A stretch of 64,000 nt of DNA. Origin: Eledone cirrhosa. Taxonomy: Eukaryota. Positions within the stretch are counted from its first letter, which is position 1. Each line of letters opens with the position of its first letter. A model generated the notes under the pieces. It did not search any database. It was not told the origin of the DNA and was given only the letters and a program-made list of their open reading frames with translations. The translations under genes and the position numbers were made by a program. Positions 31,427 to 64,000 of the stretch are shown here, in pieces. The stretch is taken from positions 311,984,001 through 312,048,000 of the forward strand of contig OZ024741.1 in the NCBI GenBank assembly GCA_964016885.1. The letters are read 5' to 3'.

Positions 31427-31450
31427 AACAATAATAATAATAATAATAAT

Positions 31451-39100: not shown

Positions 39101-39425
39101 GAAGTGGTTGAAACACCATATTTACAAGGAGGAGGCTAGACTACTGTGCAGGATCTGTGGAGAGAGAGAGGAGACTGTGGCTCACATTGTATCCGAGTGT
39201 AAACAGCTAGCCCAGACTCACTATAAGGGCTGGAGACATGATGTGATGGGCAGGGTGATCCACTGGCACCTACGCAAAGTAAACAATTTACCACATGCTG
39301 AGAAGTAGTATGAGCATAAGCCAGAGTCAGTGATAGAAAACGATCAGGTGAAGGTGCTGTGGGATTTTAGGATACAGACGGACAAGAAACTGGAACACAA
39401 TAGACCTGACCTGGTGGTTTTGGAC
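36107..39425 (+). mobile_element. R4/Dong-type RLE LINE family 1, copy 1 (breaks off inside the endonuclease)
   Basis: N-terminal W..CY..GYRK.M..W..EQKL.GQAR.I domain, RT, CRICG..ETVAHIVSEC knuckle, RHD, NRPDLVVLD, then (AAT)n. Confidence 0.93.
36820..38256 (+). pseudogene. Longest open segment (478 aa) of the Dong-type polyprotein, RT N-terminal half
   Basis: PWWKKRL, YRQNRMF, NYRPITCL, EQKGC, WIDYKKAFDMVPH, GIFQGDSLSPLLF; frameshifts into ORF 38284-39033 (MDDLKLF). Confidence 0.9.
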
Positions 39426-39466: not shown

Positions 39467-39486
39467 GAAGAAGAAGAAGAAGAAGA

Positions 39487-42343
39487 AAACGCACATGGTG
39501 GATATATATCGTTATGGAATCGCTCCCGTAAGTTTTTGATTTTTACTTATTTAAAACAACTGTGATAGAATAATTCGTATTACAAATTAAGTATAAGATT
39601 ACATGTTAACGCTCAGCAAGCCATAACGCATCACTTTACGCCATAGGGGCCCAATATTTAATATTTAATTTTGGATCAGAAATGTTATAGTCGAAAAAGA
39701 GAAAATGGCTAAGTGGACAGACAGGTTAATAATTTCACCAACACCACCACCGCCACGATCACCACTACCGCGCCAAAAACTCTAGACAAGTTACCTCAAC
39801 ATCTATTTCTACTTCAACTTCAACACCATCACTACAGTACTACGATCACATCACCACCACCACTGCCTCATTATCGCTACCGCCGCTATTCTCTCCCACT
39901 ACCTCCTGCTAAGTACTACTAGCACAGCACCACCACCACCACCTGCCTCATTATCACCTCCGCCGTTATTCTCTCCCACTACCTCCTGCTAAGACATGCA
40001 TCGTAGTGTCCCCACTAAAAGAGGAAGGCACCAAAAGATATAAATAGACTGATTTGATGACCCGGTCAAAAAATCAAAATAACAAAAATCAAAATCAAAA
40101 CAGCACAGCAACAACGAAAAACGTAAAGAAAAGAAAAATGAAAAGAAAAACAAACAGACAGACAGAGAAGGAAAAAAAACAAAAAAAACTAAGTCAGACA
40201 TTCAAACATTACATTACCATGAAACTTATGCTTATTCTCTTTTTTTTTTTTTTTACCTATTTGTTTGTTTGTTTATTTATGTTCCTCTACAGCGTGATAG
40301 TGTCACACTAAAATCACGGGAGGTGATGAGATCACCGGAGGTGATGAAATCACCGGTGGTTATGTAACCATACATTCACCAATCCTCGATAAGAGTGTTT
40401 CAATGTCGAACCTAAACAGTTCGAATAACGGTGAAGTGGAGACTAGAACGTCATGTGACAGACTCTCACCCAGCAGGTGCTCCCTGGCTCAGCAGTAGGG
40501 ACCTAGCTGTCAACCAAATACTGCTGGTGTCGGAGGAAGAAGAAGAAGGAAAGGGACCAGAACCAACTGGACGAAAGAATTGAATAGAACTATTATGCAA
40601 TGTTACCTGAAGAGTAACCCCAAGGAGAAAGGCTATAGGAAACGGATGCATAACATCTAGAACGAGATTGGTCTACTTAAATTAGATGAACAGAAATTGG
40701 CCGGGCAGGCTCGGGCAATAAGAACTAATGGGTGGATAAGCGAGCTGGAACTGGAGGAACGGAGCAGAGAGATTAGCTTGGAAATGGAGAGTGGAGTATG
40801 CCAGGCAAACGAGTCAGTGGGAAATGAAGGTGAAGAGGTCGAGAGAACGGAGGAACCACCCGAAACAGACAATGATCTGAATGCTGAGATAAATAATACC
40901 TGGAACAGAGATACGGCCACTGAGGAGATGAATGCTGACGGGCTAGGACAAGATTTGGTAGATATCCTAAACTTAGTGGTAGATGAATTGAACAATAATA
41001 GTGGGAAACCTATGAACCTCAGATTTGTAGACAGGAAAAAGTTAAAAGAAACAACAGCTAAGGTAAACAAAGTCATCCCTTACCATGAGGCGAGGAGCCT
41101 TCACCAGTGCAACAATATCCTCAAAGCAACAGCAAATGCGGTGAGGAAATTACTTGGCATAAAAGCGAGAGGAAACAACAAACAAGAAAGATCAGAACCT
41201 TGGTGGAAGAAACGACTTAATGGTCAAATTAGGGAAATGAGAAATGACATTGGAAAGCTTGAGTCCCTACTGAATGGGACACTAAAAACATAGACACTAA
41301 AAATAGACTGGAAATAAAGTACAAAACTAGGAGGAAAAAGCTAAATATTATAATAGAGGAACTGAAGCAACGCATTGTAGCAAGGAGTGCAAAGATTAGG
41401 CGATACGAGAGCAGAGTCAGTCAGTATAGACAGAACCGCATGTTTGAGAACAACCAGAAGATGCTGTTTGGACAGCTTGAAGGGAAAGAAAGAGGCAACG
41501 ACTTGATTCCTGAGGCGGAATAAACTAAGACATTCTGGAGAGGAATATGGGAGAAAACTGAATTCAGAGATCCACAGACATGGAACTGGTTGAAAAGAGG
41601 AGACCTTAAAAAGGCTACAGAAGGAATGTTAATGGCTGCGCAAGAGCAGGCCCTCAAAACGAAGTGGTTGAAACACCATATTTACAAGGAGGAGGCTAGA
41701 CCACTGTGCAGGATCTATGGAGAGAGAGAGGAGACTGTGGCTCACATTGTATCTGAGTGTAAACAGCTAGCCCAGACTCACTATAAGGGCTGGAGACAGG
41801 ATGTGTTGGGCAGGGTGATCCACTGGTACCTATGCAAAGTAAACAATTTACCACATTCTGAGAAATGGTATAGTGGCCAGAGTCGGTGATAGAAAACGAT
41901 CAGGTGAAGGTGCTGTGGGATTTTAGGATACAGACGGACAAGAAACTGGAACACAATAGACCTGACCTGGTGGTTTTGGACAAGGAAAAAAGATCGTGCC
42001 AGATTGTGGATGTGGCCTGCCCATTCAACACGAGAGTGCAAGAGAAGGAGAGGGAGAAAATTAACCGATACCAGGACTTAAAGTGGGAGGTAAAAAGGAT
42101 TTGGAACTGCCATTAAGTCAAAGTGGTCCCGATTGTCATAGGCACACTAGGTACTATCTCAAAAGGTTTCCAGTGATGGTTAAAGAAAATTGGCCCCTTC
42201 ACGCTTTTTGGAACGCTTCAAAAGGCATGCTTGCTGGGAACAGCAAGAACCATCCGATACGTCCTGAATATCTGAGGCTGCAGGTAGAGGCTTGATATTC
42301 ATTTCAACAAACTTTCCAGTTAACTAACTGAGACTCAAAGAAC
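39487..42343 (+). mobile_element. R4/Dong-type LINE family 1, copy 2: long 5' region, RT removed by an internal deletion
   Basis: ~40185-41552 matches copy 1, then jumps to the post-RT region; complete RLE end and 3'UTR; assigning 39487-40185 to the 5'UTR is inferred. Confidence 0.88.
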
Positions 42344-42360: not shown

Positions 42361-42534
42361 TTGTTTCTACTTTTGGCACAAGGCCAGCAATTACCCAGTG
42401 CATTACTGGTACTTTATTTTATCGACCCCGTAAGGATGAAAGGCAAAGTCAACCTCGGCGGGATTTGAACTCAGATCGTAAAGGGACGTAACTATGCTGG
42501 AAAGCATGGCGTCCGACCCTCTACCGATGCTGCC
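42361..42534 (-). mobile_element. Full-length tRNA-derived SINE inside (AAT)n
   Basis: GGCAGCATCGG A-box-like, GAGTTCAAATCC B box, (ATT)n tail; AAT repeats on both sides. Confidence 0.92.
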
Positions 42535-42554
42535 AATAATAATAATAATAATAA

Positions 42555-44276
42555 AACAAAATATGGATATAAAGTCTATGACAAAACCATTAATCAATTG
42601 TTCTACATGGATGACCTGAAACTATTTGCAAAAAGATGATGAATAATTGCACGGGCTATTATCCACTGTGGAGCAGTTCAGTGATGACATTAAAATGGAG
42701 TTCGGACTAGATAAATGCGCCAATGCAACGTTCACCAGAGGAAAGCTGCTGAAAAGTTCAGACATTAATCTTGATCGGGGGAATGTGATAAGAGAACTTG
42801 ATCAAGAGGAAACTTACAAATATCTAGGTGTTTGTGAAGGAGACGGAATCAAGCACCCGACAATGAGGGAAAGGATAAGGAAGGAATGTCGCAGAGTAAG
42901 AGCAATCTTAAGAACGGAATTGAATGCAAGGAATAGGATCGATGCCATAAACACTCTTGCCATACCAGTAGTAACCTACAGTTACAATGTTATCAACTGG
43001 TCAAGCACAGAGATCCGTAGGCTCGATACAACATTTAGAAAATTCTTAACCATGCACAGAATGCATCACCCTAAGGCAGATACAGATATAATATATCTCC
43101 CTAGGAAAGAAGGAGGACGTGGGTTAATCCAGTTAGACATTGCGTTGAAAACTGCAACAATTGGATTATCTACATATCTAAGGGAATCACATGATTGGAT
43201 GATCAAACTCGTTTTGAAACACGAAAGCATCAAAAGATGCACAAGGATACAGTAATGGACTACAAATTTCAGATGTCCCATTTACTGTTGAAATGGAAAA
43301 CACAAAAAAAGCAAAGCAGGTAAAAGTAACTGCAAAGAAAGAACTGCTACAGAAACTGGCTAAGAAATGGCAAGAAAAGCCTCTGTATGGAAAATACCCA
43401 GAACGAGCTATCAATCCTAATGTTGACAAAACTTTAACCCATCAGTGGTTGGCATCCTCTGGACTGAAATCGGAGACTGAAGGTCTGATTATATCAGCAC
43501 AAGATCAGTGTCTGCCAACAAAAAATTACCAAGCCAACATAATAAAAAATGGATGCAGCCCATTATGCCGTGTATGTAAAAAACAACCAGAGACTATTGA
43601 CCATATAATTTCAATGTGCAGTCCTATAGCTCCAACCGAATACCTAAACAGGCATGACAGAGCTGCACAATCCATACATTGGATAATGTGTAAGCATTTT
43701 GACCTGCCACATGAAAAGAATTGGTGGGAGTATCAACCACCTCCCATACTTGAAAAAGATCACATCCCAATCTTGTGAAACTTTACCATCCAAACAGACC
43801 GAAAAATAGATGCAAATAGACCTGATATAATATTGAAGGACTTTAAAAAGAGGGTATGCCTGCTAATTGATATGTCCGTTCCAATAGTCAAGAATGTATC
43901 TATAAAAACATTTGAAAAATTGAGCAAGTATAAGGACCTGGAGATAGAAATTGGAAAAATGTGGAAATTGAGAACTAAAACAATACCACTGGTTGTAGGC
44001 GCTCTAGGAATGATACCTAAAGGGTCTAATGATTACTTATCGCAAATCCCAGGAAACCCGCATCTAGGAGAAATACAAAAGATAGTACTAATGGGAACTG
44101 CCCATATACTAAGGAAGATTCTGTCAATATAAGTACATCACAAGTCTAAACAACTAAAGATGCATGTGTGAGTATGTACTTTCTTTCTTGAACATGGCGG
44201 ACCTTGTTGTCTCTTGAGGTCACTGGTTGTGACTTGGTGATAACTCGTATGAACACAAAGCAAGATAAATGCAGCT

Positions 44277-44277
<1 letters not shown>
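42555..44277 (+). mobile_element. 5'-truncated R4/Dong-type LINE family 2
   Basis: YMDDLKLF, MEFGLDKC, YKYLG, EGGRGL, CRVC..ETIDHIISMC, RHD, NRPDI, KLSKYKDL, PLVVGALG; flanked by (AAT)n. Confidence 0.93.
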
Positions 44278-44308
<31 letters not shown>

Positions 44309-44309
<1 letters not shown>

Positions 44310-47300
44310 TTATTTCTTTATTAACCACAAGGGTTACATAAAGTAGACATTAAGGACAGTACAGGACAATACAGGGCGGTACAAATGGGCATTTCTGCGT
44401 GTAAAAAAAGAAACAGAGGATGTAATAATAGAACAATGAAAACATTCCCCAATAGGGGGAGACTTCCGAGGGACATTGCTGGAGAAAGCCCATTAAAAAG
44501 CCACAGTGACACTGACCACCAGGGCAAGTGCCCTCTCCCAGTTTTCCACCTTTAATTTACAGACACATACTCAGAGTAGGCCCATTCACTCGGGCCATTC
44601 TTGCCTCTCTCACCCATCTTTCAACAAAATGCTGGGAAGAGAGCATTTCCCTTTCTACCCTAATTTTCCTTTTCAAATGAAATTTGGAAAAGTTAATCAG
44701 GGCATCACCGAAGTGGTAAGTGCTCGTCTTCAGCCCTTTCAAACGTGTCCACCATACTATCTCTTTCACCATGGCCACCAGACAGATAAAAACTGCCTGC
44801 CCTTCCTGGCTAAAGGAGGAGGGCGGGGCAATCCTCACGATGGACTCGTGATAGCTGGATCCGTTCTACACGCGACAGCAGGTGTTCGACATAAACACAC
44901 AAGTCAGCAATGCTCAGACACTGGACGAGTGTGTGCAGGACGGTTTCGTCGCCCTGCGCGCATCTTGGACATGCCCGGCTGACAGCACTTCCATGCCTGT
45001 AGAGTTTATCCCGAACTGGCAAAGCTCCTCGGTAGCACTGCCAGGCCAGGGATTTCTGGAAGTTGTCCATAGGCCCCGGCCCGAAATTTCTTCCGAAGAG
45101 ATTGGCTAGTTAATTTTCGTCGACGCCTAGAGTTTCCCCAAGTACGTCGTCGCTCTTTCCCTCCACTAATCCTCTATAGAACGCCAAGGTGGAGTTTCCA
45201 CCGATCACATTGCCCGATTGGACGAGGGCTGTGAGTGCCTGAAGACATTCCAGTCTCCAAGCGCTCCCTCTCGGTCTTCGCTTGACCCAGGACTGCAGCT
45301 CCGTAAAGGAGCCGAGCTGGGGAAAGACGTGTCTAGCAAACGGAGACCACACCTATCACCGTCGAGGAAGAGGTGGAGATGTCGTAGCCTGAGCGCGTGT
45401 CTGCGCATCATCAGCCACGGCATTCCCAGCCCTCCACGTAGAGAGTGTGACAGCAGATGGACCGCCTGACCATCGGAGCGCGTCCTTTCCACAAAAAGCG
45501 AAAGAGCAAACGCTCCAGCGCTGTCAGGCGGGGCTTAGGACAAGGTACGACGGTCAGGCGGTTAGCCACCTCCGCTCGACCTTTCAGGGATAGCTTAATC
45601 TCGGCCCATTTCTGGGTGAGAGAAGCCACCCTGCTCGACACCTCTTCCCAGTTTTTGTCCGTCTGGAGATCTGGACCGAACCAGACCCCGAGCAATTTAA
45701 CTGGTCCATCCGTCCAGCGCCCGACGACGCTGTTGGACGGCATGGACCTGCCTCTCCAGGTGCCGAGCTGCAGGCCCACTGAGTTTTCCTGGTTGATCAT
45801 TGCTCCTGTCACCGCCTCGTATTCTCTTAGTGTAGTGCCGATCGCCTCGATGTGTTTGGCGTTCGACACCACTACGGTGACATCGTCCGCATATGCTGAC
45901 ACGGATCTTCCGCATCCTAGTTCGCGCGGGACCCCCCTCAACGTCTCCAGTTTGTGCAGTAATGGCTCGAGAGTCAATACGTACAAGAGGGACGAGAGGG
46001 GACATCCTTGGCGGACCGAGCGCATGATGTTGAACGGTTCCGAAAGGTGACCGTTCACTCTCACCACAGAGCAGATGTCGCTGTGCATGGCAGCGATCCA
46101 GCCTCTGAAGACGGGCCCAAAGCCAGCCGCCCTCAGGACTGCCTGGGGTACGATGGTCGACCCTATCGAAAGCTTTCGACTGATCTAAATTGATCAAGGA
46201 CCCACCCGTGCCAGGTTCCCTAGCTACCCTCTATACGATGTATCGCATGAGGTGGAGGTTGTCGTGGATGGATCTGTCGGGAATGGCGCATGTCTGCGTC
46301 TCTCCCACCAGACCATCAACGACAAGCGCCAACCTCTTTGCTATCACCTTGGTCAAAATCTTGAACTCTGTGTTTAGCAGAGTTATGGGCCTGACATTAT
46401 CTAATGTTATCCCCCTTGTTTGGATGCTTTCTCAGCAGCGCCACAGCTCCTCGGCTCACAGAGCTGGGAATTCTCCGGTTCTGTTGCCAGTTGCAGTAGA
46501 CGTCCGCCAAGAGGCCTGCGAACAAGTATGGCATGTGTACTAAAGTTCATAGCGCAGACCATCCAAACCAGGCGATTTACCCCTTGTGCAGCTAGTCATT
46601 GCCTCCCGTACTTCAGCGGCTGTTATCGGCTTTTCGCAACACTCCGCCTCAGTGGCCGAGATCCGCATCAGTCCGTCAAGGTAGACACTAAAGTCCATCT
46701 CTCGATCCGGCCCGCCGCTGCCCCCGAACGACTGAGCGAAGTGTCGCTGAAAAGCTTCACACATTTGCCCAGAATCGAGTAGCATGCGCCCGTCGTGGTC
46801 CACCAAAGACCGGATCGTGGCTTTGTTGCCACGATTCGCCTCCGCCACTCGGGCCCATTGAACGGCTTTCGTCCCCTCGTGTCTGAGAGCACGCACCCTA
46901 GCTCTGACAACGCAGCTTTCGTGCTTTGCATTGAAGAAATGGTCAAGGGCCAACTTCGCCGTAAGCACGTCGGTCGCGATGTCTTTGCTAAGCGCCTCGT
47001 CTAATTTTCCAAATAATTCTCCCTCTGCTCTATTTTTCTCTATTGCTAAAGCCTTACCAAACCTAATGGACTCTATTATAATTGTTCTTCCCAGAGCAAA
47101 CCACTACTTGCTGTTGACGATGGCCCCTGTCAACGCCCGCTTAACTAGTTCGCTAATTCGGTCTCTGTAGGCCTTGCGCGCTGGTAAGGACGCGTTTAGC
47201 TTCCAGTAGCGGGGTCCTCGTCTATGAAGCCTCTTAAATCAAGTACACAGATCACGAATTTGTGGTCCGTGTAGCTGACTATCTTGAATTGTGGACAGCC

Positions 47301-50179
47301 TATGCTAGACCCATCTATTTCTCTACAAAATACTCTATCTAGATATGATCTGGATGACCCTATGCGATTTGTCCAAGTCCACATTGGCACATTCGGGAAA
47401 TCCAATCGGTACCTGTCAGACAGTTCAAAACACCTGAGCAGGTTGGTAAGGCTCTTGCACCCTCCTCCCCTATCCGCTAATCTCACACAGTTCCAGCGTG
47501 CATCTTAGATCCCGTTCCAGTCGCCCACTAACACTAAAGAGCGGGACGTTCCAAGAAAGGTCTCCAGACGCCGGAAGAAATCAGGCCGCCCTGCTCCTGT
47601 CGGGGCATAGACGGCCACTAGCCTGAACGCTTGCCCGTCTCCGCTGGTCACGTCTAACACAACCAAATTACCTTCTGGGTCCAGGAAGATGGCCCGTATG
47701 GCGAGATCCAAACCTCTCCGAAAAAGCACAGCAACTCTTCCCTCCGATCCCGGACGGCTGGGAGATGCGTACACATCGTAGTCGCCGAAGATCGGTGCGA
47801 AGGCCCGTGCTTCGGAGATTCTGGTCTCGCAGATGCCCACTACATCTATGTTTAGTGACCTGAGGTCGTTGAGCAGGTGGCCCTGCTTCCATGACGACCC
47901 CAAGCCACGCGCATTTATGCTGCCTATTCTGAGTGAGGTCATATTGAAATGGAGTGGAAAACATGGGAAAGACCACTTACCTTACTTCTCGTAGAGGAAG
48001 GACGGTTTTTCCATCCTTTTCACTTCTTGTGGCCTCCTCAGGAAGGATGTTCTTATAAATCCTCCTGGAGAGTGCTTGTCGGAAGTCTCCGATGTCTTTG
48101 GGGAATTTTTGTTTCAGTGTCATGTACGTTTTCTGTGTGATGCGAGTGATTTGTATGTGTGGAGGTGGTGTGAATTTTTGGGTTGTTGTGTAGTCTTTTT
48201 CTGTGATGCTGGTGTTGTGTTGGATGTAGTGTAATAATTGGTTGTTGTTCAAATTTAATGGTGTGTAGTGTGTATCGTTTTGGTTGTTTTGTTTTGTTTG
48301 CGTTTGTTGTGGGTTTGTTTCTGTTTCGCATTTTCGTGACTTTTGTGGTGTAGGTGATGGTGGTGTTGGGGTTAATGATGGTGATGGTGTTGGTGTTTGG
48401 GGTGATGGGGTTGGTGATGCTGGTGTGGATGGTGGTATATCTGTCCTAACTTTTTTGTTTGTTAATTTATTTGTTTCCCTCTGTATTTTGTTTTTGGAGA
48501 GGGAAGGAAGAGAATTTTTTCTTTTTTGGTTTCTTTTTTTTCTTTTTTCCTGATACTGTTTCCCACTCCTCGTCGTCACAATCTGTCTCCAGTTGTGATA
48601 GGCCGGGGAGTGGAAAATCCTCCACAGGTGTTAGTTTTGGTTGTCGCGTGGTGGATGGTGTAGGCGCTGGTGCTAGTTCTGAAGCGTTGGGTGGTGGTGG
48701 TGTTGGTTTTGCTGGTGGTGATGGTGTTGGTTTCGCTACTGTTGCTGGGGTTGTTGCTGTTATAGTTGCTTCTGTTGTTGCTGCTACAGTTGTTGCTGCC
48801 ATCTCTGCTACTGGTGGTGTTGATAATTGAGTCACTGGGGTGGGTAGGAGAGGTGGCCTCAACCTTTTAGCCTGAAGGCAGAAAGCCTTTAGGTGGGTTC
48901 CTTCACCACAAACGACACACCTAGGCCTTCTGCCCTCGACAATTACGGTGAGGTGGCTACCGTCAGTGAGGTCTATTACCTCTGGGATCTCCTCAATGCT
49001 TTTTTGGTCCGCTTGGATCAGGAGCTCCATCCCAGATCCGGACCAGTTCTCCTACATTTCTTTTGCTATTGCTATTATCTTTGTGTTGGCTTCGATGCCG
49101 GCGAGGACGGCCGCTATTTGCCAGGGAATTTCGATGGCCGGTGGAACGTGGGTCACCCTGATCTTTACCAGTCTCTGGCCACAATAGCTTGGGACGAGTG
49201 TTAAGTCGTCACTTCTTAATGGGGCCATGGAGTGTTCTTTAGCCTCCTCTGGTGTTTCAAAGAACACGTCCACGGTTCCATACTTCTGCCCACGTCTGAT
49301 GTGGGTTTTTCTTGCCCACACATGTCGCTTTTTGGATTTGGGACTCAGATGCCCGTTCCACTCGGCGCGATTTTATGTTTATTGTCCGATAAGTCACGGT
49401 GCATAGGCGACGTTGCTCCATTTTATTAGGTGACGGGGGGGGGGGGGGGGGGGCTGACCATGTACCCATCTTTCTTTACCATTCCTTTGGCTTCGTCTAA
49501 TTCTTCCTGAGTTACCTGAATCGCTTCGCACGTTTTTGCTACTCTGGCAAAACTCAGGGTAGTTTTCTTAATTTTGTTGCTGTTGTTGTTATCGTTATTT
49601 TTGCTATTGTTAATTTTAGTTTCAGTTGTGGTGGTGGTGGTGTCAGTGGTGTTCGGTATGGAATAGTTCATTTTGGTTGAATTCATTTCGATATCATGAG
49701 TTAATTTATATTTTTTTTCTTTTGTTTCTGTTGTCGCTGTGGTGGTGGTGGGGGTGGTGGTTGTCGCGGTGGTGGTGGTGGTGGTGGCGGCTTTAACACC
49801 TGCAGTCATTAGGTAATGGCGGGAAATGAACGTCTGCCTGAGACAAATTTATAATATTGCTACTGCTTACAATTCCAGTGTTGGCAAACGTAGCAATGTT
49901 TACAATGGTGGTGACGGTGTGAGGTGTTGGATTGTGAGGAAGGAGTGAATCTGAGTCATCCATTATTTTTCAAAGAAAAAAATTATTGTTTGATAATTAT
50001 AAAATGTTTAAATTTTGGGCTCAAGGCCCCAATATTTTGAGTGTCCTTTTCAGAAATCAATGTATGTGCACTTATATATAGTTAACAATAAACATTTTCC
50101 ATAAATGGCAATTTTAAATAACTGAAAATAACAAACCTTTGCGGAGCTCACGATGATACGATTTACTACGTAGGTCGCC
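44309..50179 (-). mobile_element. Full-length Tx1/L1-type LINE family B (ORF1 with CCHC knuckle, ORF2 APE-RT), frameshifted
   Basis: ORF1 CVVCGEGTHLKAFC; ORF2 from ATG 47942 (IGSINARGL), YADD, CPRC..ETVLH.L.QC; AATAAA tail; (AAT)n on both flanks. Confidence 0.94.
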
Positions 50180-50215
<36 letters not shown>

Positions 50216-50217
<2 letters not shown>

Positions 50218-53200
50218 TTTCATTTATTGAAACAAGAGCCGACATATAGGGGCAATCCAAAATACTGGGACAGTGGGGTTTTACAGAAAAATCGAGTAAA
50301 CAATATGAATAAACAAAGTAACAATAACAAAGTAACAATAAAGTAACAAGAAAATTACAAGAAAAAATTCCCCAATAGGGGGGATGCCCACCTAGGGTTC
50401 GCTCAGGTACCCCACCAGTCCTGAACGACCCGACACTTCGAGAGCAGTCTGGAAGGGCACCCCTCTCCTCTTCAAATTTACCTACCTACAGCCGCATGAC
50501 CAGAGTAGGCCCACTCACACGGGTCATTCTCGCCACATTCACCCACCTTTCAGCTAATGTACTGGGGGGAAGCACTTCTCTCTCCACCCTCACCTTCCTT
50601 TCCAAGTAAAACTTGAAAAAGTTGATGAGGGATTGGCCGAAGAGAAAAGTGTCTGTCTTCAGTCCTTTCAAGCTCGTCCACCATACAACCTCTTTCGCTA
50701 CTGCCACCAGACAGAGGAAAATTGCCTGCCCTTCCTGGCCAAAAGGCGGCGGGTCGATCTTCACTATGGACTCGGCCGATAGCCGGATCCGTTCTACACG
50801 CGACAACAGCTGTTCAACATAACTCCACAAGTCAGTAATGCACTGAACGGTTTCGTCGCTCTGCGCGCATCTTGGGCAGATCCGTCTGACAGCACTTCCG
50901 TGCCTCTAGAGTTTATCTCGAACCGGCAGTGCCCACCGGTAGCACTGTCAAGCGAGGGATTTTTGGAAATTATCCATCGTCCCCGGCTCGAAATTCCTCC
51001 GGTACAGACTGGTTAGTTCGACTTCGTTGACTCCCAGAGCCTCTCCCAGTGCGACGTCGCACTTGCCCACCACTAATCCTCTATAGAACTCGAGAGTGGA
51101 AGTTCCACTGACCGCATTGCCCGCCTGGTAGAGGGCAGTGAGTGCCTGGCAACATTCCAGATGCCAGTCACCCAGTCTCGGTCTCTTCTTGACCCAGGAC
51201 TGCAACTCAGTCAAAGAAAAAAGCTGCTGAAAGGCCCGTCTGACAAACGGCGACTACACCTGTTCACCGTTTAGGCAGAATATCAGGAGATGCCGCAGCC
51301 TCAGCGCGTGCCTGCGCCTTATTAGCCACGGCATGCCCAGCCCTCCACATAGAGTGTGCTGGCAGCAGATGGACCACCTCACCAGCAGAACCTGACCTCG
51401 CCACAAGAATTTGAAGAGGAGCCTCTCCAAGATGGCGAGGCGCGAACGGGGGCAAGGGACGACAGTCAGACGGTAGTAGTTGACGGACGCGATGTACGCG
51501 TTCGCCACTTCCGCCCGACATTTCAGTGATAGCTTCCTCCCAGCCCATTTCTGGGTGAGACTGACTACCGTGCCCGTCACCTCGTCCCAATTCTTATCTA
51601 CCTGGACGTCTGGCCTGAACCAAACCCCTAGCAACTTTACCGGTCCGTCCGTCCAGCGCCTAACGACGCTGTTGGACGGCATGGACTTGCCTCTCCAGGT
51701 GCCGAGTTGCAAGCCTACTGACTTTTCCGGGTTAAGTTTTGCTCCCGTCAACCTTCCATATTCCTCCAATAAGTTGCCAACCACCTTGATTTCTGAGGTG
51801 TCCGACACCACCACGGTGATGTCGTCCGCATAAGCCGACACAGCCTTTCCACGTCCCGATTCGAACGGGATGCCCTGCAACAGCTCCAGCTTCCGCAGTA
51901 AAGGCTCGAGAGTCAATACGTACAGAAGGGAGGAGAGAGGGCACCCTTGACGGACCGATCGGGAGACCTGAAACGGTTCCGAGAGGTGGCCATTAATTTT
52001 GACCATGTATTGCAGCGATTCAGCTTCTGAAGACGGGGCCGAAGCCAGCCGCCTTCAGGACAGCCTTCAGGTACCGATGGTCGACCCTATCGAATGCTTT
52101 CGATTGATCTAAATTGATCAGAGCCCCACCGAAGCCAGGTTTACACCCTACCCTCTCTATGATGTATCGCATTAGGTGGAGGTTGTCGTGTATGGACCTG
52201 GTTGGGATTGCGCAAGTGTGCGCCTCCCCAACCAAATGCCCGACGACAAGCGCCAACCTCTTCGCTAACACCCTGGCCAAAATCTTAAACTCTGTGTTGA
52301 GCAGAGTTATGGGCCTAAAATTGTCTAATGTGTCCCTCTTGTTCTCGTCTTTCCTTATAAGCGTCACTACGCCCCGGCTCACAGACCTGGGAATACTCCC
52401 GTTTTGCTGCCAGTTGCAGTAGAGGACTTCGAGGAGATTGGAGAACAAGTCTGGCATATTTACGTAAAGCTCGTAGGGCAGACCATCTAAACAGGGTGAC
52501 TTACGCCTCATGCAGCCTACAAGGGCATCCTGAATCTCGGCTGAAGTAATTGGCCTTTCGCAGCGCCCAGCGTAAGCCGTCGAGAGTTGCGGCAAGCCAT
52601 CGAGGTAGGGACTGAAGTCCGCCACCATCTCTGACCCGCCGCTTCCCCCGAACAACCGAGCAAAATGTTGGCGAAAGGTTTCACACATCCTCTTGGAATC
52701 GCTCAGCTCGTGCCCGTCTCGGTCCGTCAAAGACCGAATCGTGGTTTTATTACCACGCTGCGCCTCTGCCACGCGGGCCCATCGAACAGCTTTGGTTTCC
52801 TCGTTTCTCAGAGCACGCGCATTAGCTCTGACAATGCAACTTTCGTGTTTCGCATTGAAGAAATGGTCTCATGCCATTCTCGCCGCTAGCACATCAGTTG
52901 CAATGCCACTACCAATAGCCTCGTCTAACTTATCTACCAACTCCCCCTCCTTTCTATTTTTCTCTAATGCTACTTCTTTGCTAAACTCTATCGACATTAC
53001 TCTAATCTCTCTTTTGAGAGCACCCCACCATCTATTGCTGACGACTCCCCCTGTCAACGTTTTCTTAACTAAATTGTTGACCTGGTCCCTCTAAGCCTTA
53101 CGTGCCGGAAATGACATGTTTAGCTTCCAGTAACCAGGACCTAACCTACGCGTCTTATCTAGCTCGACCATACAGATCACACACTTGTGATCTGAATAGG

Positions 53201-56008
53201 CGACCGTTTCAAAACGTGGACAGCCCACACTATTTCTGTCTATTTTCCTAATGAATATCCTGTCTATATACGATCTAGATAACACTATGCGGTTAGCCCA
53301 GGTCCACACTGGCGCATTAGGTAAATCTAGTCGGTACCTGTCAGACAGTTGGAACTGGCTGATCAGGTTCTTGAGGCTTTTGCACCCCCCGCTCCTATCG
53401 GATACTCCCACACAGTCCCAGCGTGCGTCTAAGATGCCGTTCCAGTCCCCCGCTAACAGTAAAGAGCGAGACGTACCCAGAAAGGCTTCCAGACGTCTAA
53501 AGAAGTCCGGCCGTCCTGCCCCAGTAGGAGCATAGACGGCCACCAGTCTAAAGGCACCACCTTCATTATTGTTCACGTCCAGGACCACCAACTTCCCGTC
53601 CGGGACCGGAAGATCGACCTTACCCAGAGATCCAGGCCTTTCCTAAACAGCACTGCCACCCCGCCTCTCATTCCCGGCCGGCTAACAGATACAAAGATCT
53701 GATAGTCGTCTAAAATGGGGGCTAGTGCGCGCGTGTCGGAAATCCTGGTCTCGCTGACTGCAATTACATCCATTTCTATAGACATGAGGTCGTTGAGCAG
53801 GTGACCCTGCTTCCAGGATGATCCCAGGCCTCGAGCATTTATACATCCTACTCTTAATACGGCCATGTTGGCAGGTTAAACAGAGAGAGAGGAAGGTTTA
53901 CTTACCTTCCGGGCTCTTGTGAAGGTCGGGTTGTTCGACCTCCATAGTTAGTGGGTTTTCTTTTGGGAACCCCTTTAAAAGTCTTGAAGTTGGTTTTACG
54001 TTTGGGGTTCCCACGTCCCGAGGAAACCTGTCTCGTATTTCTTTGAATATGTCAAGCGACATTCGCACCAGAACCAAACCTTCCGGAACGCGAAATGTGC
54101 TCGATTTTAAAATCTCCCCCTCTTTTTGTATATTTTGACTTCGTGCTACGAGGGCAATCAGTTCCTTGTTGGCCCTCCTGACGAGCACGAAGTTTTGTAT
54201 GTTTTGTTGGTGTGATTTTATTTGTTTGCGTGGCTGTGGTGGTGATGGTTTTAGTGGTGTTGTTTCGGTTGTATCTGTGTTTGTTGTGAGTGCGGTGTCT
54301 GTGGTTTCAGATGTTTGTGTGTATATTTGTTCTTGCGTCTGTTTCGGTTGTTTGCGTTTGGGGGATTCTGTTGATGGTGATGGTGGTGTTGATGTTGGTG
54401 TTATTGGAGAGATGTTTGCGTGGGTGGTATCTGCGTTTTTTATTGTGGGTGCTTTTGTGCTTTGTTGAGTTTTTTTTTTCTTTTTGTATTTTGGGCGATT
54501 TTGGATTTCCATCATTTTCACTACTGGTAGATGAGGGGTCTGTGTCTGTAAGTGTGTCTGTATGTATGTTTAAGGTTTTATTGGCGTGTGTATTTTTGGG
54601 GGGAGGGTGAATTTGACAGCTTTCCTCGTTTCCCCCCTTGGTGGTCAATGTTGGTGGTGGTCTTTCTATTGGTGTTGTTGTTGGTGGTTTTGGTCCTCGC
54701 CCCGGCGTCGGCAGCAGTGGAGCCTTTCGGCCCCTTGCTTCTTTCCGCAGTTGAGGGCAGAAGGCTCGCAAATGGGTTTTTTCCCCACAAATAAAACACT
54801 GCGGCCTTTTGCCTTCGGTCATAATGTGAATGACAGTTCCATTCTGAAGGCGGATGTGGTCTGGGATTGTCTTCACATTCTCGGGCCTGATCTGGAGAAG
54901 GATCTCCAGGTCAACCCCGGACCAGTCCTCTCTGGCCGTTCTGGTCACTTCAATAGGGACTGTATCCGTCCCCTCCACAATCACACATCCCAGAAGCCAC
55001 CACATGTCAAGTCCTGGTAGGATTCTGGGAATGCGGAGACGGGCCGTTCTTTTTCCCATGTGGGAGGGGCACATTATGACCTTGCTGGTTTTGCAAGGAG
55101 TCATAGCGTGTTTCTTATTGAGGGCTTCTGACTTGAACAACACCGAAATGGTGCCGTACTGTCTGCCCCTCTCTATGTACTGGGTGTCTTCTCTGATGCA
55201 CCTCAGCGCGACTTCGACATCTTCTTGTGGGATTAGCGCAACCCTTTTGGTTTGTGCTGAGATGCATCTATAATGCACCGTTTTGCGCTCCACTGCCTCA
55301 GTAGCTTCTACCGGGACAGTTAAGTTGGCCCAAGTTTGCTCTTGCTTGATGAGGTTCCATGCCTGGGCCAACTTTTCATCTTTGTTTGAGAGGTCCATGT
55401 TGAAGCATGGCTTCTTTTTTGCTGCTGCCGCAGCGAAAGTGGTCTTGTTTTCGTTGGGGGTGTTGTTGACGTTGTTCTTATTGGTGTTGTTGTTAGCACT
55501 GTCGCTGTTATCATTGTTGTCTTTGTTGCCACCGTTGTTCTCGGTGCAGTTGGTATTGTTGGTGTTGGTGTTGTCGCTATTTGTTTTCATGTTAATCGTA
55601 TTTGTTATTTTTTTTATTTATCTGTAATTTCGTTGTCGCAGTTACTGTCATTTTTTTTCAAAATTAGAGTTTTTATTGGTATCATTGGTGTCTTTGTTTA
55701 CCTTGTTTGTGGTGGTGTTTGTGTTATCAATGAGTGTTAATTTCGCTGTAGCGCTCCTCTCAACTTCTACGCCGTTGTCGCACGACAGCCGACATATCGC
55801 TGTTTTTTTTTCTTCGTAAATTTTTTAACATGTAAAAAAAATGTTCAAATATTTGGGCCAAAAGGTCCAAATATTATACTTTCCCCTTCACGGGGCAAAG
55901 TCTAAGGGCATATATCCCTTACACAACAAGAACTATTTAACAACAAATAATTTAAACAGGCAAATAAAGCGACTTACTGTGAGTGAGCAAAAGACGTCCG
56001 CTTAGACC
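50216..56008 (-). mobile_element. Full-length Tx1/L1-type LINE family C, few disablements
   Basis: ORF1 55590-53898 with one frameshift; ORF2 from ATG 53866 (VGCINARGL) to 50486 in six open segments; (AAT)n on both flanks. Confidence 0.94.
54307..55590 (-). pseudogene. Tx1 ORF1 gag-like nucleic-acid-binding protein (427-aa open segment)
   Basis: Asn-rich N-terminus, TFAAAA motif, C-X2-C-X4-H-X4-C knuckle CFICGEKTHLRAFC; true C-terminus probably in ORF 53898-54521. Confidence 0.85.
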
Positions 56009-56044: not shown

Positions 56045-58959
56045 TGAACAATGATAGTGGGAAACCTATGAACCTAAGATTTGTAGACAGGAAAAAGTTA
56101 AAAGAAACAACAGATAAGGTAAACAAAGTCATCCCATACCTTGAGGCGAGGAGCCTTCACCAGTGCAACAATATCCTCAAAGCAACTTCAAATTCGGTGA
56201 GGAAATTACTTGGCATAAAAGCGAGAGGAAACAACAAACAAGAAAGATCAGAACCTTGGTGGAAGAAACGACTGAATGGCCAAATCAGGGAAATGAGAAA
56301 TGACATTGGAAAGCTTGAGTCCCTAGTGAATGGGACACTAAAAAGATAGACACTAAAAATAGACTGGAAATAAAGTACAAAACTAGGAGGAAAAAGCTAA
56401 ATATTATAATAGAGGAACTGAAGCAACGCATTGTAGCAAAGAGTGCAAAAATTAGGCGATACGAGAGCAGAGTCAGTCAGTATAGACAGAACCGCATGTT
56501 TGACAACAACCAGAAGATGCTGTTTGGACAGCTTGAAGGGAAAGAAAGAGGCAACGACTTGATCCGTGAGGCGGAACAAACTAAAACCTTCTGGAGAGGA
56601 ATATGGGAGCAGGATGTTAAACATAATGACCAGGCAGTGTGTATTGAGACAGTACAAAAGGAGATTAGTGAACAGGCACACAAACAAACTGATTTGAGTA
56701 TCACAGTTGAAACTCTTAAGGGGCAGGCCAAAAAACTAACCAACTGGAAATCACCAGGTCCAGATGGTGTGCAGGGGTATTGGATTAAAAATATAACATC
56801 CCTCCACCCGAAACTGACAACCATGTTCAATGACTTCTTAGTGTCAGGTGAGGTACCAGAGTGGTTGACAAAAAGTACCACAGTTCTGGTAATGAAAGAC
56901 CGAATCAAGGGTAACGATGTTACCAACTATAGACCTATCACATGTCTGTCTGTAATGTGGAAACTGTTGACAAGAATTATGTCTGAGGAAATCTACCATC
57001 ACCTCCACACAAACAACTTGTTACCGGATGAACAGAAAGGATGCCGAAAGAAGTCCCGTGGTACAAAGGACCAGTTACTTATTGATAAGATGGTAATTAG
57101 GAAGTGCAAGAGGAGACACACTGGTCTTGCCATGGGATGGATAGACTATAAAAAGGCAATTGACATGGTGCCTCATTCTTGGATCACCAAAAGCCTAGAG
57201 ATCTTCAAGGTGGCAGATAACATCAGACAGTTGTTGGGCAAAAGTATGAAGTCCTGGAAAACAGAGTTAACATCAGCTGGAGAATCATTGGGAGGCGTGA
57301 AGATCAAGAGAGGTATCTTTCAGGGAGATAGTCTGTCCCCTCTGTTGTTTGTCCTTGCCCTGATGCCACTGACCATTATACTGCCAAAGGTGAGAACAGG
57401 ATACACGTTGTGAAAGGGAGAGCTTACCATCAATCACCTCCTCTTCGTGGACGATCTTAAGCTCCTCGGGAAGAGTTAGAAGGAGTTGGATGTGCTTGTT
57501 GACACTGTCCGTATTTTCAGCAATGATATATGTATGCAATTTGGTATTAGTAAGTGTGGAGTCCTTGTGATGAAGAGGGGTAAATTGAGCAGAAGCAACT
57601 GAATCCAGGTACCAATAGGTGAGATGATAAAGGAAATTGACACTGAAGAAGGATACACGTATTTGGGTGTTCTGGACGCTGATGACATCAAGAACAAAAC
57701 AATGAAGGAATTGAAAAGATCTGAGTACATTCGGAGAATAAGGAGCGTATTAAAGTCACATCTGAACAGTAGGAATGCCATAAGTGCAGTAAATTCCCGA
57801 GCTGTGTCTATTATTAGGTAGAGTGCGGGAATTCTGAGAAGGAATGTTGCTGAACAAAAAGAAATGGATAGGAAGATTAGGAAGCTATTGACTATCTACA
57901 ACATGTTCCACAAGAGGAGTGATGTCGATAGACTCTACTTAAGGAGATCTGAAGGTGGAAGAGGTCTTATCAGCACAGAGGACTGTGTTCAGATGGAGAA
58001 AAACAACCTACACAAATACGTGACTGATAGTAAGGAGCCAATGCTCACAATTGTACTGAAGGAGATGACAATAGACCAGGGGATGTCCAAGGAGGAAATA
58101 ACAACGAGGAGAAAGAGCAGCCTTCATGAAAAATCCCTCATATTACCTTCTTTGAGAAAACTGAATTCAGAGATCCACAGACATGGAACTGGTTGAAAAG
58201 AGGTGACCTTAAAAAGGCTACAGAAAGAATACTAATGGCTGCGCAAGAGCATGCTCTCAAAACGAAGTGGTTGAAACACCATATTTACAAGGAGGAGGCT
58301 AGCCTACTGTGCAGGATCTGTGGAGAGAGGGAGGAGACTGTGGTTCACATTGTATCCGAGTGTAAACACCTAACCCAAACTCACTATAAGGGCTGGAGAC
58401 ATGATGTGATGGGCAGGGTGATCCACTGGCACCAATGCAAAGTAAACAATTTACCACATTCTGAGAAGTGGTATGAGCATAAGCCAGAGTCGGTGATAGA
58501 AAACGATCAGGTGAAGGTGCTGTGGCATTTTAGGATACAGACAGAGAAGAAACTGGAACACAATAGACCTGACCTGGTGGTTTTGGACAAGAAAAAAAGA
58601 TCGTGCCTGATTGTGGATGCGACCTGCCCATTCGACACGAAAGTGCAAGAGAAGGAGAGGGAGAAAATTAACCGATACCAGGACTTAAAGTGGGAGTTAA
58701 AAAGGATTTGGAACTGCCATGAAGTCAAAGTGGTCCCGATAGTCATAGGCGCACTAGGTACTATCTCAAGGAATTTCCAGGGATGGTTAAAGAAAATTGG
58801 TCCCGCCACGCTTTTTGGAACGCTTCAAAAGGCATGCTTGCTGGGAACAGCAAGAACCCTCCGATACGTCCTGAATATCTGAGGCTGCAGGTAGTGGCTT
58901 GATATTCATTTCAACAAACTTCCCAGTTAATTAACATCAATGACTGAGACTCAAAGAAC
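56045..58959 (+). mobile_element. R4/Dong-type LINE family 1, copy 3 (5'-truncated, complete 3' end)
   Basis: Highly similar to ~36880-39425; RT in ORF 56496-57413 and full RLE domain in ORF 58193-58882; flanked by (AAT)n. Confidence 0.94.
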
Positions 58960-58962
58960 AAC

Positions 58963-58998: not shown

Positions 58999-59000
<2 letters not shown>

Positions 59001-59142
59001 TTTCTTTATTGGCCACAAGGGAAGACATCAAGAAAAACATTACAGACGGCACAGGAAGGTACAGGACGGTACGATGTGGGTTTTGTGCGTGTAAAGATTT
59101 TTATTATTTATATAAGAAAAAAAAAAAAAAAAGACAGAAACA
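58999..59142 (-). mobile_element. 3' tail of a Tx1 family A-like element
   Basis: Matches ~26688-26840 and ~31700-31820. Confidence 0.9.
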
Positions 59143-60099
59143 TCTATATATATAAAAGCGAGGATGTGTGTGTGTGTCTGTGAACAAATTTGGATAGCTA
59201 AGGCTTTTGCAATTCCCAACCGAATTTGACCAAATTTTCTGTGCACGTTGCACCTGTCGCTAAGATGGTCACATCAGAAATATTTTTCAAATCGACCCAC
59301 GTTAAACAATAAAAAATCGATAGCAAATCTATCGATAGCAAAAATTATGTTTTCTGAAGTGCATGATGTAAGGGAGATAACAAACTTTATTGCAATCCTT
59401 ATAAAGAAAGTGAGAGAGGGGAGATGTGGAGACCTTCGTTTTCACTTTCAAAACAACAATCATCGTCGGACGAAATTTCAGAAATATAAACATCAGATTC
59501 ATTTGAAGATAAATCACTAATATTATCATTTTTTTCTTGTTTATTCTGAAAGTCGGTATCACTACTTTCATAAGCCATGTTGATACTAAAAAAAAATGAG
59601 TTGCACTTTCAAAGTTAAAAAAACACTACTTGTTTTAACTTATTTCACTATATTAATTGTTGATTTCGCGGTAAGGGCCTAATCTCGCAGCAGTCTCGAA
59701 TTGACGAGATGTTGATGATGGTTTGTTTAGTTTTAGAACAATCCTTTTGGGACTCCCATTCAAACCATTGGGACCTACACCTTTTACATTTTTAAAGTAA
59801 TTTCGTCCACATTTGAGGAAGGCATTATCTATGCTTCCAGCTGTATTCGTACACATAAAACTTTTTTGACAATGAAGGAACATACTGAACATGATGTAGT
59901 TATTCAAAGGATTTTTTAAGTTTTGCCAGTATATTTTTAATTTTACCGTAACGCTTCAATTCATACATTTTGACTTTACAATTTTTCACCAAATATGAAA
60001 GTATGCACATATTGGCTCTCGGACTGTGACCTCTCGGTCGAAGAAAACAATGCGTGTATATGACGCTCCGCCAATAACCGAAAATAGTTTCTAAAATTG
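59143..60099 (+). mobile_element. Helitron-like non-autonomous element (5' end recognisable, right boundary uncertain)
   Basis: A|TCTATATATATAAAAGCG..(TG)n..AACCGAATTTGACCAAATTTT, a common invertebrate Helitron 5' architecture, at an A|T site. Confidence 0.55.
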
Positions 60100-61625: not shown

Positions 61626-62284
61626 CCTTCCAGTGTTCAACCACTATATATATATATATATATATATAGTTATATTTGGGGAGGGTCATATTTGCGTAAT
61701 ATTGCCAGAATTAATAACAGAACACACTCACTGTTTGGTTGGTTTTCGCTTCTCGCTGTCTTTTATATCTGCGATCTAACTTACTCGGTCCTCAATGTTG
61801 CCATTGACTGACCGACGGTCAAAAATAATACAGATACAATATAGGCACAAACACATATATATAGTTTACATAATTTACATAAATCTTTCGTTGCACATCT
61901 GCAACATCGTCAGTGCTGTTATATTCATTGTTCCTCCTGTTGTGTTGTATGTCTACGCCATTTTTTTGTTCAGTCTGTCTATATATTTATTTATTTATTT
62001 GCTTGTTTGTTTATCTTATTTTATTTTGTCTTCTTTGCGCATGCGTTTGCGTGTGTGTATAGTGTTATGTGTGATGTGTGACTAGTGTGTATAGTGTTGT
62101 GTCTGCTGGGTGACTAGTGTGTGTTTATGTGCTTGTTGTTATTGTGCTTGTGTATGTATTTATTTATCTTATTTTATTTTATTTTATTTACTTATTTATA
62201 CTTCTCTTAGGTCAGTGTTGTTTGTTTGGGTGTTGTTGTTGTTCCACTCATTCTTTCTGTTTAGCTGTGAGTGTGACAATAGGA

Positions 62285-64000
62285 AACGATGAAACATTTC
62301 CAATCGGAGGAGACCTCTGAGGGTTGCTCGTGGAGAAAGCCCATAAGAAAAGCCACAGGCAGCCTGACCGCTAGGGCAAATGCCCTCTTCCAGTTTTTCT
62401 CCCACGATGCTACAGGCACATGCTCAGGGTAGACCCATTCACACGGGCCATTCTTGCCTCTCTCACTCACCTTTATACAAACTGGCTCGAAGTCAGCACT
62501 TCTCTCTCTACCTTGATTTTCATCTTCAGGTGAAACTTGAAAAAAGTTAATAAGGGCATCACCGAAAGTATCCGTCTTCAACACTTTCAGACGTGCCACC
62601 ATACAATCTCATTTACCATGGCCACTAAGCAGATAAAAACTCACTCCCCTTCTCGGCTAAAGGAAGGCGGCGGGGCAATTTTCACGATGGACTCAGCTGA
62701 TAGCCGGATCCGTTCTACACGTGACTGCAGGTGCTGGGCATAAACCCACAAAAGTCAGCAATGCTCGGATACTGGTCGAGTGCGTACACGACGGTTTCAT
62801 CGCCCTGTACGCAGCTCTAACAAGCCCGGCTGACGGCACTTCCATGCCTGTAGAGTTTATCCCGAACTTGAAAGCTTCTCGGTAGCACTGCCAAACCAGG
62901 GATTTCTGGAAGTTGTCCATAGGGCCCGGCCCGAAAGTTCTCCCGAAGAGATTGGCTAGTTGATTTTCGTCGACACCTAGTGTCTTCCCAAGTACGTCGT
63001 CACTCTTCCACTCCACTAATGCTCTATAGAACGACAAGGTGGTGTTTCCACTGATCGCATTGCCCGATTGGTTGAGCGCTGTGAACGCCTGTGAACGTTG
63101 TGAACGCCTGGAGACACCAAGCGCTCCCTCTCGGTCTACACTTGACCCAGGACTGCAGCTTCGTCAAGGAGACGAGCTGGGGAAACACGCGTCTAGCAAA
63201 CGGCGACCACATCTGATATCCATCGAGGAAAAGGTGGAGATGTCGTAGCCTCCGTGCCTGTCTGCGCATCATCAGCCACGGCATGCCCAGCCCTCCACGT
63301 AGCGGGTGTTGAGAGTATATGAACCGCCTGACCATCGGAGCACGGCCCTTCCACAATGAGCAAACCTTCCAGTGCAGTCAGGCTAGGCTTAGGACAAGGC
63401 ACGACGGTCAAGTGGTAGTAGATGACGGACGCGACCACTCGATCTTTCAGGGATAGCTTCCTCTCCTCCTAATTCTGGCTGAGAGAAGCCACCCTGTTCG
63501 TCACCTTCTCTCAGTTTTTGACCGTCTGGAGGTTGTTCCGAAGCAGACCCCTAGCAATTTAATCGGTCGGCACGTCCAGCGCCCGACGACTGTGTTGGAC
63601 GGCATGGACTTGCCTCTCCACGTACCGAGCTGCAGGCCCACCAACCTTTCCTGGTTGATCATTGCTCTTGTCACCGCCTCGTATTCTCTTAGTGTAGTGC
63701 CTTTCACCTCGATGTGTTTGGCGTTCGACACCACTATGGTGACATCGTTTGCATATGCTGACACGGAACTTCCGCATCCTAGTTCGTGCGGGACGCCCCT
63801 CAACGTCTCCGGTTTGTGCAGTAATAGCCCTAGTGTCAATACGTACAACAGGGACGAGGGGGAACATCCTTGGTGGACCGAGAGCATGATATTGAACGAT
63901 TCACTCTCACCACAGAACAGATGTCACTGTGCATCGCAGCAATCCAGCCTCTGAAGACGGGCCCCAAACCAGCCGCCCTCAGGATTGCCGCCAGATAACT
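62285..64000 (-). mobile_element. Tx1/L1-type LINE (family B-like), RT C-terminal half and 3'UTR; continues beyond the window
   Basis: QGCS.SSLLYVLTL, YAND, GGLGMP, MDNFQKSL.WQCY; 3'UTR aligns with ~44440-44530. Confidence 0.92.

Follow-up and report, generated by a model that had tools for sequence, protein, structure and literature searches.

Tx1-type retrotransposons joined to AAT microsatellites in a nested locus of the octopod Eledone cirrhosa suggest a lineage with a preference for ATT sites

Several retrotransposon families of the Tx1 clade, which carry an endonuclease of the apurinic/apyrimidinic (APE) type, insert into microsatellites. In the sections of the cited papers on which we draw throughout, the targets are (TC)n for Kibi, (TTC)n for Koshi, and (TTCC)n or (TTTC)n for crocodilian families (PMC4494074, PMC3812793), and a family is regarded as sequence-specific if >20% of its genomic copies are flanked by the target (PMC4494074). 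Short interspersed nuclear elements (SINEs) can occupy such a target as well: SINEU elements share that of Tx1-Mar, with tandem insertions of SINEU-3 around the duplicated target, and for SINEU-1 the same section reports that no long interspersed nuclear element (LINE) sharing its 3′ terminus was found (PMC4494074). TAA repeats are given there as target only for Dong families of the Dong/R4 clade (Dong, DongAg, DongBg), including a snail family (PMC3812793); these have a restriction-like endonuclease (RLE) and a single open reading frame (ORF). Keno (APE) and Utopia (RLE), both in U2 genes, illustrate that unrelated nucleases can converge on one target (PMC4640811). The nick consensus of the L1 endonuclease is TTTT/AA, and its β-hairpin loop has been studied as an element of target selectivity (PMC1950540). 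In this study, we analysed a stretch of 64,000 nucleotides from Eledone cirrhosa (contig OZ024741.1 of assembly GCA_964016885.1, forward-strand positions 311,984,001 to 312,048,000; hereafter the window, to which all coordinates refer), in which Tx1-type elements, a SINE and plus-strand RLE elements share AAT tracts. We favour, with moderate confidence, a Tx1 lineage that prefers ATT sites and nicks at a T^A step, together with re-use of existing junctions.

The elements form a single 32.7-kb block (26,494–59,156), in the following called the nest. All eleven (AAT)≥5 tracts of the window read AAT on the plus strand and lie within 26,655–58,998, and none is present in the remaining 31 kb. They comprise (AAT)6–13 and start at 26655, 31430, 35826, 35950, 36088, 39426, 42535, 44279, 50180, 56009 and 58963; an additional imperfect tract starts at 42344. 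Every (AAT)≥5 tract is the edge of some retroelement, the chance that an element end coincides exactly with a tract edge being ~3.4e-4, and the eleven tracts are not independent events. Orientation is sorted by class: within the nest, every Tx1 and SINE copy lies on the minus strand, and the four RLE copies all lie on the plus strand. Without the four RLE inserts the nest is one head-to-tail chain consisting of a family A fragment, a family C and a family B element, three SINEs, copy A2, two SINEs, copy A1 and a family B fragment.

Read in element sense, the Tx1-type 5′ ends are joined as ATT|G in all five cases (31429, 35825, 26654, 50179, 56008), and the four intact Tx1-type 3′ ends in the nest all run as AATAAA…C|ATT directly into the ATT repeat. 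The original prediction had quoted these junctions from the plus strand, and all of them were recovered, namely GTCGCC|AAT at 26654 and 50179, CACC|AACAAT at 31426, CTTC|AAT at 35825 and GACC|AAT at 56008 for the 5′ ends, and AAT|GAT at 26688, 50216 and 58999 and AAT|GTT at 44309 for the 3′ ends. Its description of full-length 5′ ends in the same phase is right for the register, but the copy at 26654 is a mere 161-bp fragment of a family B 5′ untranslated region (UTR). At 31426 the tract junction is real, but shifting it to 31429 (ATT|GTTGGTG) aligns A1 with A2, and the AAC at this junction is, judged from the alignment, probably element sequence.

Three families, A, B and C, with 73–80% identity in their ORF2 DNA, contribute to the nest. 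The full-length family C element (5.8 kb, 50216..56008) has an ORF1 with a CCHC knuckle and an ORF2 with APE, reverse transcriptase (RT) and zinc finger regions. It had been thought close to intact but is decayed, with two frameshifts and five clear in-frame stops in ORF2 (53093, 52871, 51256, 50950, 50908), a sixth stop at the second frameshift, and an ORF1 that runs on in a second frame. Family B is represented by a full-length element of 5.9 kb (44309..50179) with an ORF1 CCHC knuckle, which keeps the APE catalytic residues and the YADD motif and contains several stops and frameshifts, and by the 5′-UTR fragment (26494..26654, ~92–93% identical to B). Copy A1 (26688..31429) keeps both ends and has internal deletions in ORF1 and ORF2. 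Copy A2 (31698..35825) keeps its 5′ end and a stop-free endonuclease (EN) stretch, with the RT deleted and the last ~22 nt gone, and its 3′ UTR is interrupted at ~31830–32366. The interruption corresponds to a ~470-bp insert (31829-32366) flanked by a 72-bp direct repeat; it contains a hammerhead ribozyme match (32108-32179, minus strand; Rfam HH9, 38.9 bits, below the gathering threshold of 52, E 2.5e-6) and is possibly a retrozyme or a Penelope-related piece. Family A also left a 158-bp 3′-UTR fragment (58999..59156), whose 5′ side is cut by unrelated sequence; its end at 59156 was therefore rejected as a true 5′ truncation. The interrupting sequence (59143-59400, plus strand) starts with TCTATATATATAAAAG, which we take to resemble a Helitron 5′ end. 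At its left border the nest has undergone rearrangement, with an inverted B-like ORF1 piece (26013-26447, plus strand, 69–72% identical to B) facing the B 5′ fragment. Outside the nest, a B-like Tx1 copy on the minus strand (62272..64000, 83% identical to B) has lost its 3′ end and runs off the window.

The minus-strand elements are Tx1-clade retrotransposons with two ORFs and APE and RT domains, whose RT groups with Tx1 rather than L1; on this point the original prediction was right. Window frames of ORF2 matched Pfam PF03372 (endonuclease) and PF00078 (RT) and have a C-terminal zinc finger, and a close relative (protein P0001) carries PF13966. The ORF1 knuckle in C and B has the form CX2CX4HX4C; Pfam gave no match on ORF1, and Atlas features matched zf-CCHC and ZCCHC3 RNA-binding clusters (0.90–0.93). 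The AlphaFold model of the A2 EN has a pLDDT of 91.6 and retains the catalytic residues E-Y-D-N-D-D-H (7/7 checked positions). Its best match by fold in the PDB is the human L1 EN (E 4e-14, TM 0.79), which settled the assignment; single-sequence PDB searches had given L1 only weakly, along with kelch-repeat matches that were rejected as spurious. A2 and B have the EN β-hairpin loop NRIGSSRS, C has NRIVLSRS, and most copies of a sister lineage described below have DSSPSAKVGS; the similarity among A2, B and C hints at most that specificity may be seated in the endonuclease.

For the RT tree (LG+G4), 47 rows were used: four window copies, 12 of 44 loci from a scan of prokaryotic assemblies, and 31 hand-chosen representatives of 389 retrieved proteins. 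The window copies and four database proteins are grouped in one clade (support 100/100). A 42-row group (98/90) contains this clade, three proteins bearing a TX1 name and two elements that have a poly(A) tail and lie in 5S rRNA genes; under a mixture model the equivalent Tx1 group reached only 84 in the SH-like approximate likelihood ratio test. The TX1 names in this tree are similarity annotations, the outgroups are long-branched and loosely identified, and the rows do not include Tx1L, Keno, Kibi, Koshi or Dewa. Among named proteins, the nearest is one from Argonauta hians, with 68% identity to P0001, which makes an octopod host probable.

Evidence from outside the nest comes from solitary insertions. 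The 5′-truncated Tx1 copy G (9009..10737, plus strand), which is sister to C in the RT tree (99/98), had been listed as an exception to ATT insertion. It does lack an AAT tract, but it is flanked on both sides by an 8-bp direct repeat TATCTTAC, 4 nt of which are microhomology, and its reconstructed empty site, GAGTTAT^TATCTTAC, shows that it sits in a TTATTAT micro-tract; the repeat and the site rule it out as plain counter-evidence. Its 3′ terminus is the same as in the other Tx1 copies and has no ATT tail. Because G and the elements of the sister lineage end without a repeat tail, the ATT tracts are more likely target than tail. A solitary full-length SINE (24459..24637) shows a 9-bp direct repeat, ATTATTGAA. 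A 5′ junction could be defined for five solitary insertions, and in each of these TTATT occurs ≤12 nt upstream of the junction, against a background of 0.023–0.028 (nominal p 1.6e-8; 2e-5 if just three of the insertions are independent). This support for an ATT preference is real but soft, and the solitary cases indicate a loose preference for short ATT sites, not a need for long tracts.

The SINE, of ~180 bp, has five nest copies and four elsewhere in the window; all lie on the minus strand and show 88–98% identity to the copy at 42362. This near full-length copy (42362..42534) has a B-box-like motif, ATT tracts on both sides and a Tx1-like 3′ end. Two 5′-truncated copies (35844–35949 and 35971–36087) have ATT tracts between and around them, and two further 5′-truncated copies (31451–31593 and 31594–31688) are arranged in tandem. 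At the end of one copy (36073-36087, minus strand), the 5′ 15 nt are an inverted copy (14/15) of a sequence 11 nt further inward, a fold-back junction joined at ATT|G. Besides the full-length copy at 24459, the solitary copies comprise one at 24704..24876, inserted at the ATT end of a repeat here called H, and two 5′-truncated ones, at 23628..23717 behind the other copy of H and at 3914..3976. Repeat H (175 bp; 23719-23893 and 24877-25051, minus strand, 91% identity between copies, with a partial inverted copy at 25484-25569) ends in ATT in both full copies and has a SINE next to each, and could be either another ATT-ended element or part of a composite SINE. No tRNA was found in the SINE by ARAGORN or Rfam, the B-box-like motif being the only match, and the SINE core had 0 matches in bacterial and archaeal genomes.

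The terminal ~27 nt of the SINE match the Tx1 3′ end, at modest identity (16/24 in the pair compared). A 3′-end matrix trained on five Tx1 3′ ends and run unfiltered over 127,490 window positions placed nine SINE-type ends at ranks 6–14 (10.2–14.5 bits), right behind the training sites; the best non-SINE site scored 8.8 bits and one further SINE end 8.2. In a comparison of possible 3′ partners covering the Tx1 ends, the RLE ends of the window and repeat H, the scores of four SINE ends exceeded those of 1998–2000 out of 2000 dinucleotide shuffles; three RLE ends and repeat H failed to do so. The SINE also has the orientation of the Tx1 copies, opposite to that of the RLE elements. The shared 3′ end suggests that it may be mobilised by Tx1. 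Part of the constancy of the 5′ phase may come from microhomology, as ATTGGCAG is part of the full SINE head and one RLE element, D3, is joined at its own AAT.

The common 3′ core of Tx1 and SINE contains a hairpin with a CUUGU-type loop just before AAUAAA, which is also found in the sister lineage. The SINE and the sister lineage share the closing stem GGC/GCC, G has GCC/GGC, and B has AACC/GGUU. Over 19 aligned rows, nine of them locus rows retrieved by a pattern that already contained the stem, 76.8% of cells pair (62.6% in shuffled alignments, reached in 0/500) with a covariation of 0.253 (1/500), and sliding the alignment by +3 gives 0.215. The folding energies of eight 3′ ends are mostly unremarkable (z +0.80 to -1.97), so the hairpin rests on conservation, not on stability.

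The original account of the tracts had omitted both the SINE and the plus-strand RLE elements that share them. D1 (36106..39425) has lost its 3′ end at (AAT)13(AAG)7. D2 (39486..42343) carries an internal deletion and is homologous to D1 from 40182; positions 39486–40181 may be its 5′ UTR. D3 (56045..58962) is 5′-truncated and encodes an RT, a CCHC motif and a PD..D-type nuclease, and the likewise 5′-truncated E (42553..44278) belongs to a second family. D3 and E have AAT on both flanks, as expected for insertion into (TAA)n. The D and E elements have a single ORF with RT, a CCHC motif and a C-terminal PD..D-type nuclease, show the motifs RPDLVVLD or RPDIILKD after CX2C..HXXXXC, and find their best PDB matches in R2 RT; PF03372 was absent from the D and E frames scanned. 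From motifs and flanks, we tentatively take D1, D2, D3 and E to be Dong/R4-like. Compound (AAT)n(AAG)n tracts occur at 39426-39485 and at 6270-6296, the latter without a matching repeat elsewhere in the window. An older E-related RLE element (~14584-20100, minus strand) ends in (TAAA)6 instead of (TAA)n and has its 3′ part twice (~14900-15600 and ~16400-17300).

The sister lineage was found in the scan of prokaryotic assemblies mentioned above, in which 40 of the 44 loci (L001–L039, L044) are eukaryote-like contigs in one metagenome-assembled genome (MAG). This MAG is labelled Arenicella, and the contigs are host contamination in that assembly. The elements, 41–44% identical to the query, form head-to-tail arrays with a period of ~6.4–6.9 kb and intact ORFs, and the sampled members are the sister clade of the octopod lineage (100/100). 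Their 3′ ends lie a few bases past AATAAA and lack a repeat tail. The 44 loci, which overlap in part, total 548,337 bp, and no (ATT) or (AAT) run of ≥4 units was present in them. Copies are separated by a locus-specific spacer of ~12–17 nt, which in L008 and L035 is found at the outer 5′ flank as well. Nine sampled sister-lineage ENs are 90–100% identical, yet they go with eight unrelated array spacers; no RNA gene was identified as target by Rfam at the gathering level in the 11 of 44 loci covered. Since near-identical ENs occur with unrelated spacers and no ATT, chaining as such needs no sequence-specific nuclease.

The observed domain content, register, orientation, short duplications and shared 3′ end would be accounted for as follows. 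Elements of an octopod Tx1-clade lineage would insert at ATT-type sites by target-primed reverse transcription, their APE endonuclease introducing a nick between T and A on the AAT strand (AAT^AAT), similar to the L1 consensus. The ORF2 protein could hold its RNA by the conserved CUUGU-loop hairpin just before AAUAAA. Insertion would duplicate ~6–10 bp, as seen for the solitary copies; where the target is a pure repeat, the duplication would itself be (ATT)n and might be lengthened by slippage. Thereby each insertion would leave two new targets, and later copies would stack head to tail. A SINE of presumed tRNA type with the same 3′ element would use the Tx1 machinery in trans and join the chain, and Dong/R4-like elements with an unrelated nuclease would enter the same tracts in opposite orientation by nicking the other strand. 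The preference would be loose, two ATT units or TTATTAT being enough.

The claim of an ATT-specific APE lineage is thus retained in part: insertion at ATT in one register is repeated, three families with 73–80% identity behave alike and their EN loops are similar, but the independence of the 5′ tracts is not established, and strict specificity is unproven from one nest. Within the window, target-flanked 5′ ends amount to 5/5, all in this nest, and register and direction are uniform. Several points weigh against an ATT preference. To bring G into the T^A register, one additional T has to be assumed. The choice of the TTATT motif was post hoc, and SINEs make up four of the five cases; two of the five, found next to copies of repeat H, possibly represent a single composite unit, and a diverged SINE-like copy near 4148, whose junction could not be defined, was omitted as a sixth case. 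A1 and C do not have the hairpin stem, the SINE–SINE junction at 31593/31594 has no tract, the nest evidence comes from one locus only, and the sister lineage chains with neither ATT nor a common spacer. Finally, the tract on the 5′ side had been taken as a repeat that cannot come from the element's own tail. This is true for the element itself, but the tract may be a neighbour's tail in all five nest cases: four 5′ tracts lie directly behind a neighbour's 3′ end (26655 behind A1, 50180 behind C, 31430 and 35826 behind SINEs), and the fifth (56009) comes to lie behind the family A 3′ fragment if the Dong-like insert between them is disregarded. We therefore do not use the 5′ tract as proof of targeting.

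The same arrangement supports an explanation without a sequence-specific nuclease, in which new copies re-insert behind an earlier 3′ end and ATT is an inherited spacer, or an RNA tail anneals to AAT at any nick. The sister arrays, with their locus-specific spacers, near-identical ENs and spacer at the outer 5′ flank, fit it well. Neighbours' tails could thus explain the 5′ repeats throughout the nest, the case that the original prediction had named as refuting it, but TTATT is also seen at the 5′ junctions of solitary insertions located away from any Tx1 3′ end, a tail that could anneal is lacking in G, and the neighbours in the nest are different families, not one repeated unit. As a full substitute for ATT preference we judge it unlikely; both processes can operate together. 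The long tracts might instead owe their origin and persistence to the Dong/R4-like elements and to the tails of SINEs, with Tx1 copies piling up passively owing to a weak, L1-like liking for T^A. RLE elements adjoin seven of the 12 tracts, if the imperfect one is included, insertion of Dong into TAA repeats has been described (PMC3812793), and G lies outside any tract; however, the tracts at 26655, 31430, 35826, 35950 and 50180 touch no RLE element, and an exact 5′ register in 5/5 cases with uniform orientation is not expected from a weak preference, which renders this version quite improbable. An assembly artefact, or recombination of unrelated loci at their (AAT)n tracts, could be read from tracts met without a normal element end (D1 3′ at 39425, A2 3′ at 31698) and from the rearranged left border, and some secondary deletion is certain. 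As the source of the nest, however, it is hardly credible: the nest contains no assembly gap (the sole N run is at 21309–21508), its copies differ by 5–28%, and random joining would not sort orientation by class.

Compared with the described systems, the ATT-preferring lineage works like Kibi and Koshi and is a member of the Tx1 clade, not of these families: its target is (ATT)n instead of (TC)n or (TTC)n, its host is an octopod and its preference looks loose. In our trees, which have no Kibi or Koshi rows, it is separate from the vertebrate TX1-named group. The window SINE resembles SINEU in its use of a Tx1 target and in its tandem insertions, but it has ~27 terminal nt and the hairpin loop in common with Tx1, and its head is B-box-like instead of being derived from a U snRNA. 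The Dong-like elements use the same microsatellite, but the Tx1-type elements, with their different nuclease, two ORFs and opposite direction, are not Dong. Keno and Utopia have a gene as target and identical 3′ flanks, whereas the microsatellite here is entered in opposite orientations. Mutsu-like 5S rDNA elements (L040:4422-4534 and L041:2726-2844, on contigs of bacterial MAGs; name from PMC3706591) fall in the same 98/90 clade as the window copies, but have a poly(A) tail and a 5S target and are ~28–32% identical to the query alignment. The sister lineage shares the 3′ hairpin loop before AATAAA and the head-to-tail chains, and differs in lacking ATT and in having array-specific non-repeat spacers and intact ORFs.

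If the ATT preference is true, (ATT)n would be added to the list of Tx1 targets, and the octopod lineage and its sister without ATT would form a close pair for studying the origin of specificity in an APE nuclease. A LINE of the L1 superfamily in an animal, together with a SINE that shares its 3′ end, would also bear on whether stringent 3′ recognition is ancestral in this superfamily, which is an open question (PMC3747384, section 4.4). In Octopus vulgaris, SINEs make up 11.6% of the genome, 13 L1-Tx1 and five Dong-R4 families were recently active, and hot spots of transposable elements have been mapped; the part of that source covered gives no mechanism for them and no target analysis (PMC13282606). 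Shared microsatellite targeting offers a testable mechanism for such hot spots. A much wider scenario is conceivable but doubtful: an octopod Tx1 lineage would have evolved an (ATT)n-directed EN from a non-specific, chain-forming ancestor, with stringent RNA recognition by the 3′ hairpin, and would mobilise a common octopus SINE, so that Tx1, SINE and Dong/R4 elements share AAT microsatellites from opposite strands, regenerate each other's targets and build hot spots genome-wide. Microsatellite-targeting Tx1 families are already known, which limits the surprise; the SINE/Tx1 shared 3′ end is new here. Neither an ATT-specific Tx1 nor a Tx1-tailed octopus SINE appeared in the portions of the literature searched (including PMC8967140, PMC4824008, PMC11481361, PMC5753468 and PMC11203168), with Repbase and Dfam outside this search, and an existing entry there for an ATT-specific Tx1 is quite possible; the "TX1" of PMC4176376 is the name of a mutant and irrelevant.

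Further features of the window lie outside the nest. A decayed GC-rich element (~11080-14000, minus strand) appears RLE-type-like by eye, and a decayed Penelope-like element (~60200-61600) is accompanied by a 130-bp inverted repeat (60102-60231 / 60535-60664); neither gave a Pfam match in the frames scanned. Two long palindromes, at 8541-8685 (145 bp) and 20077-20300 (232 bp), are possibly miniature inverted-repeat transposable elements.

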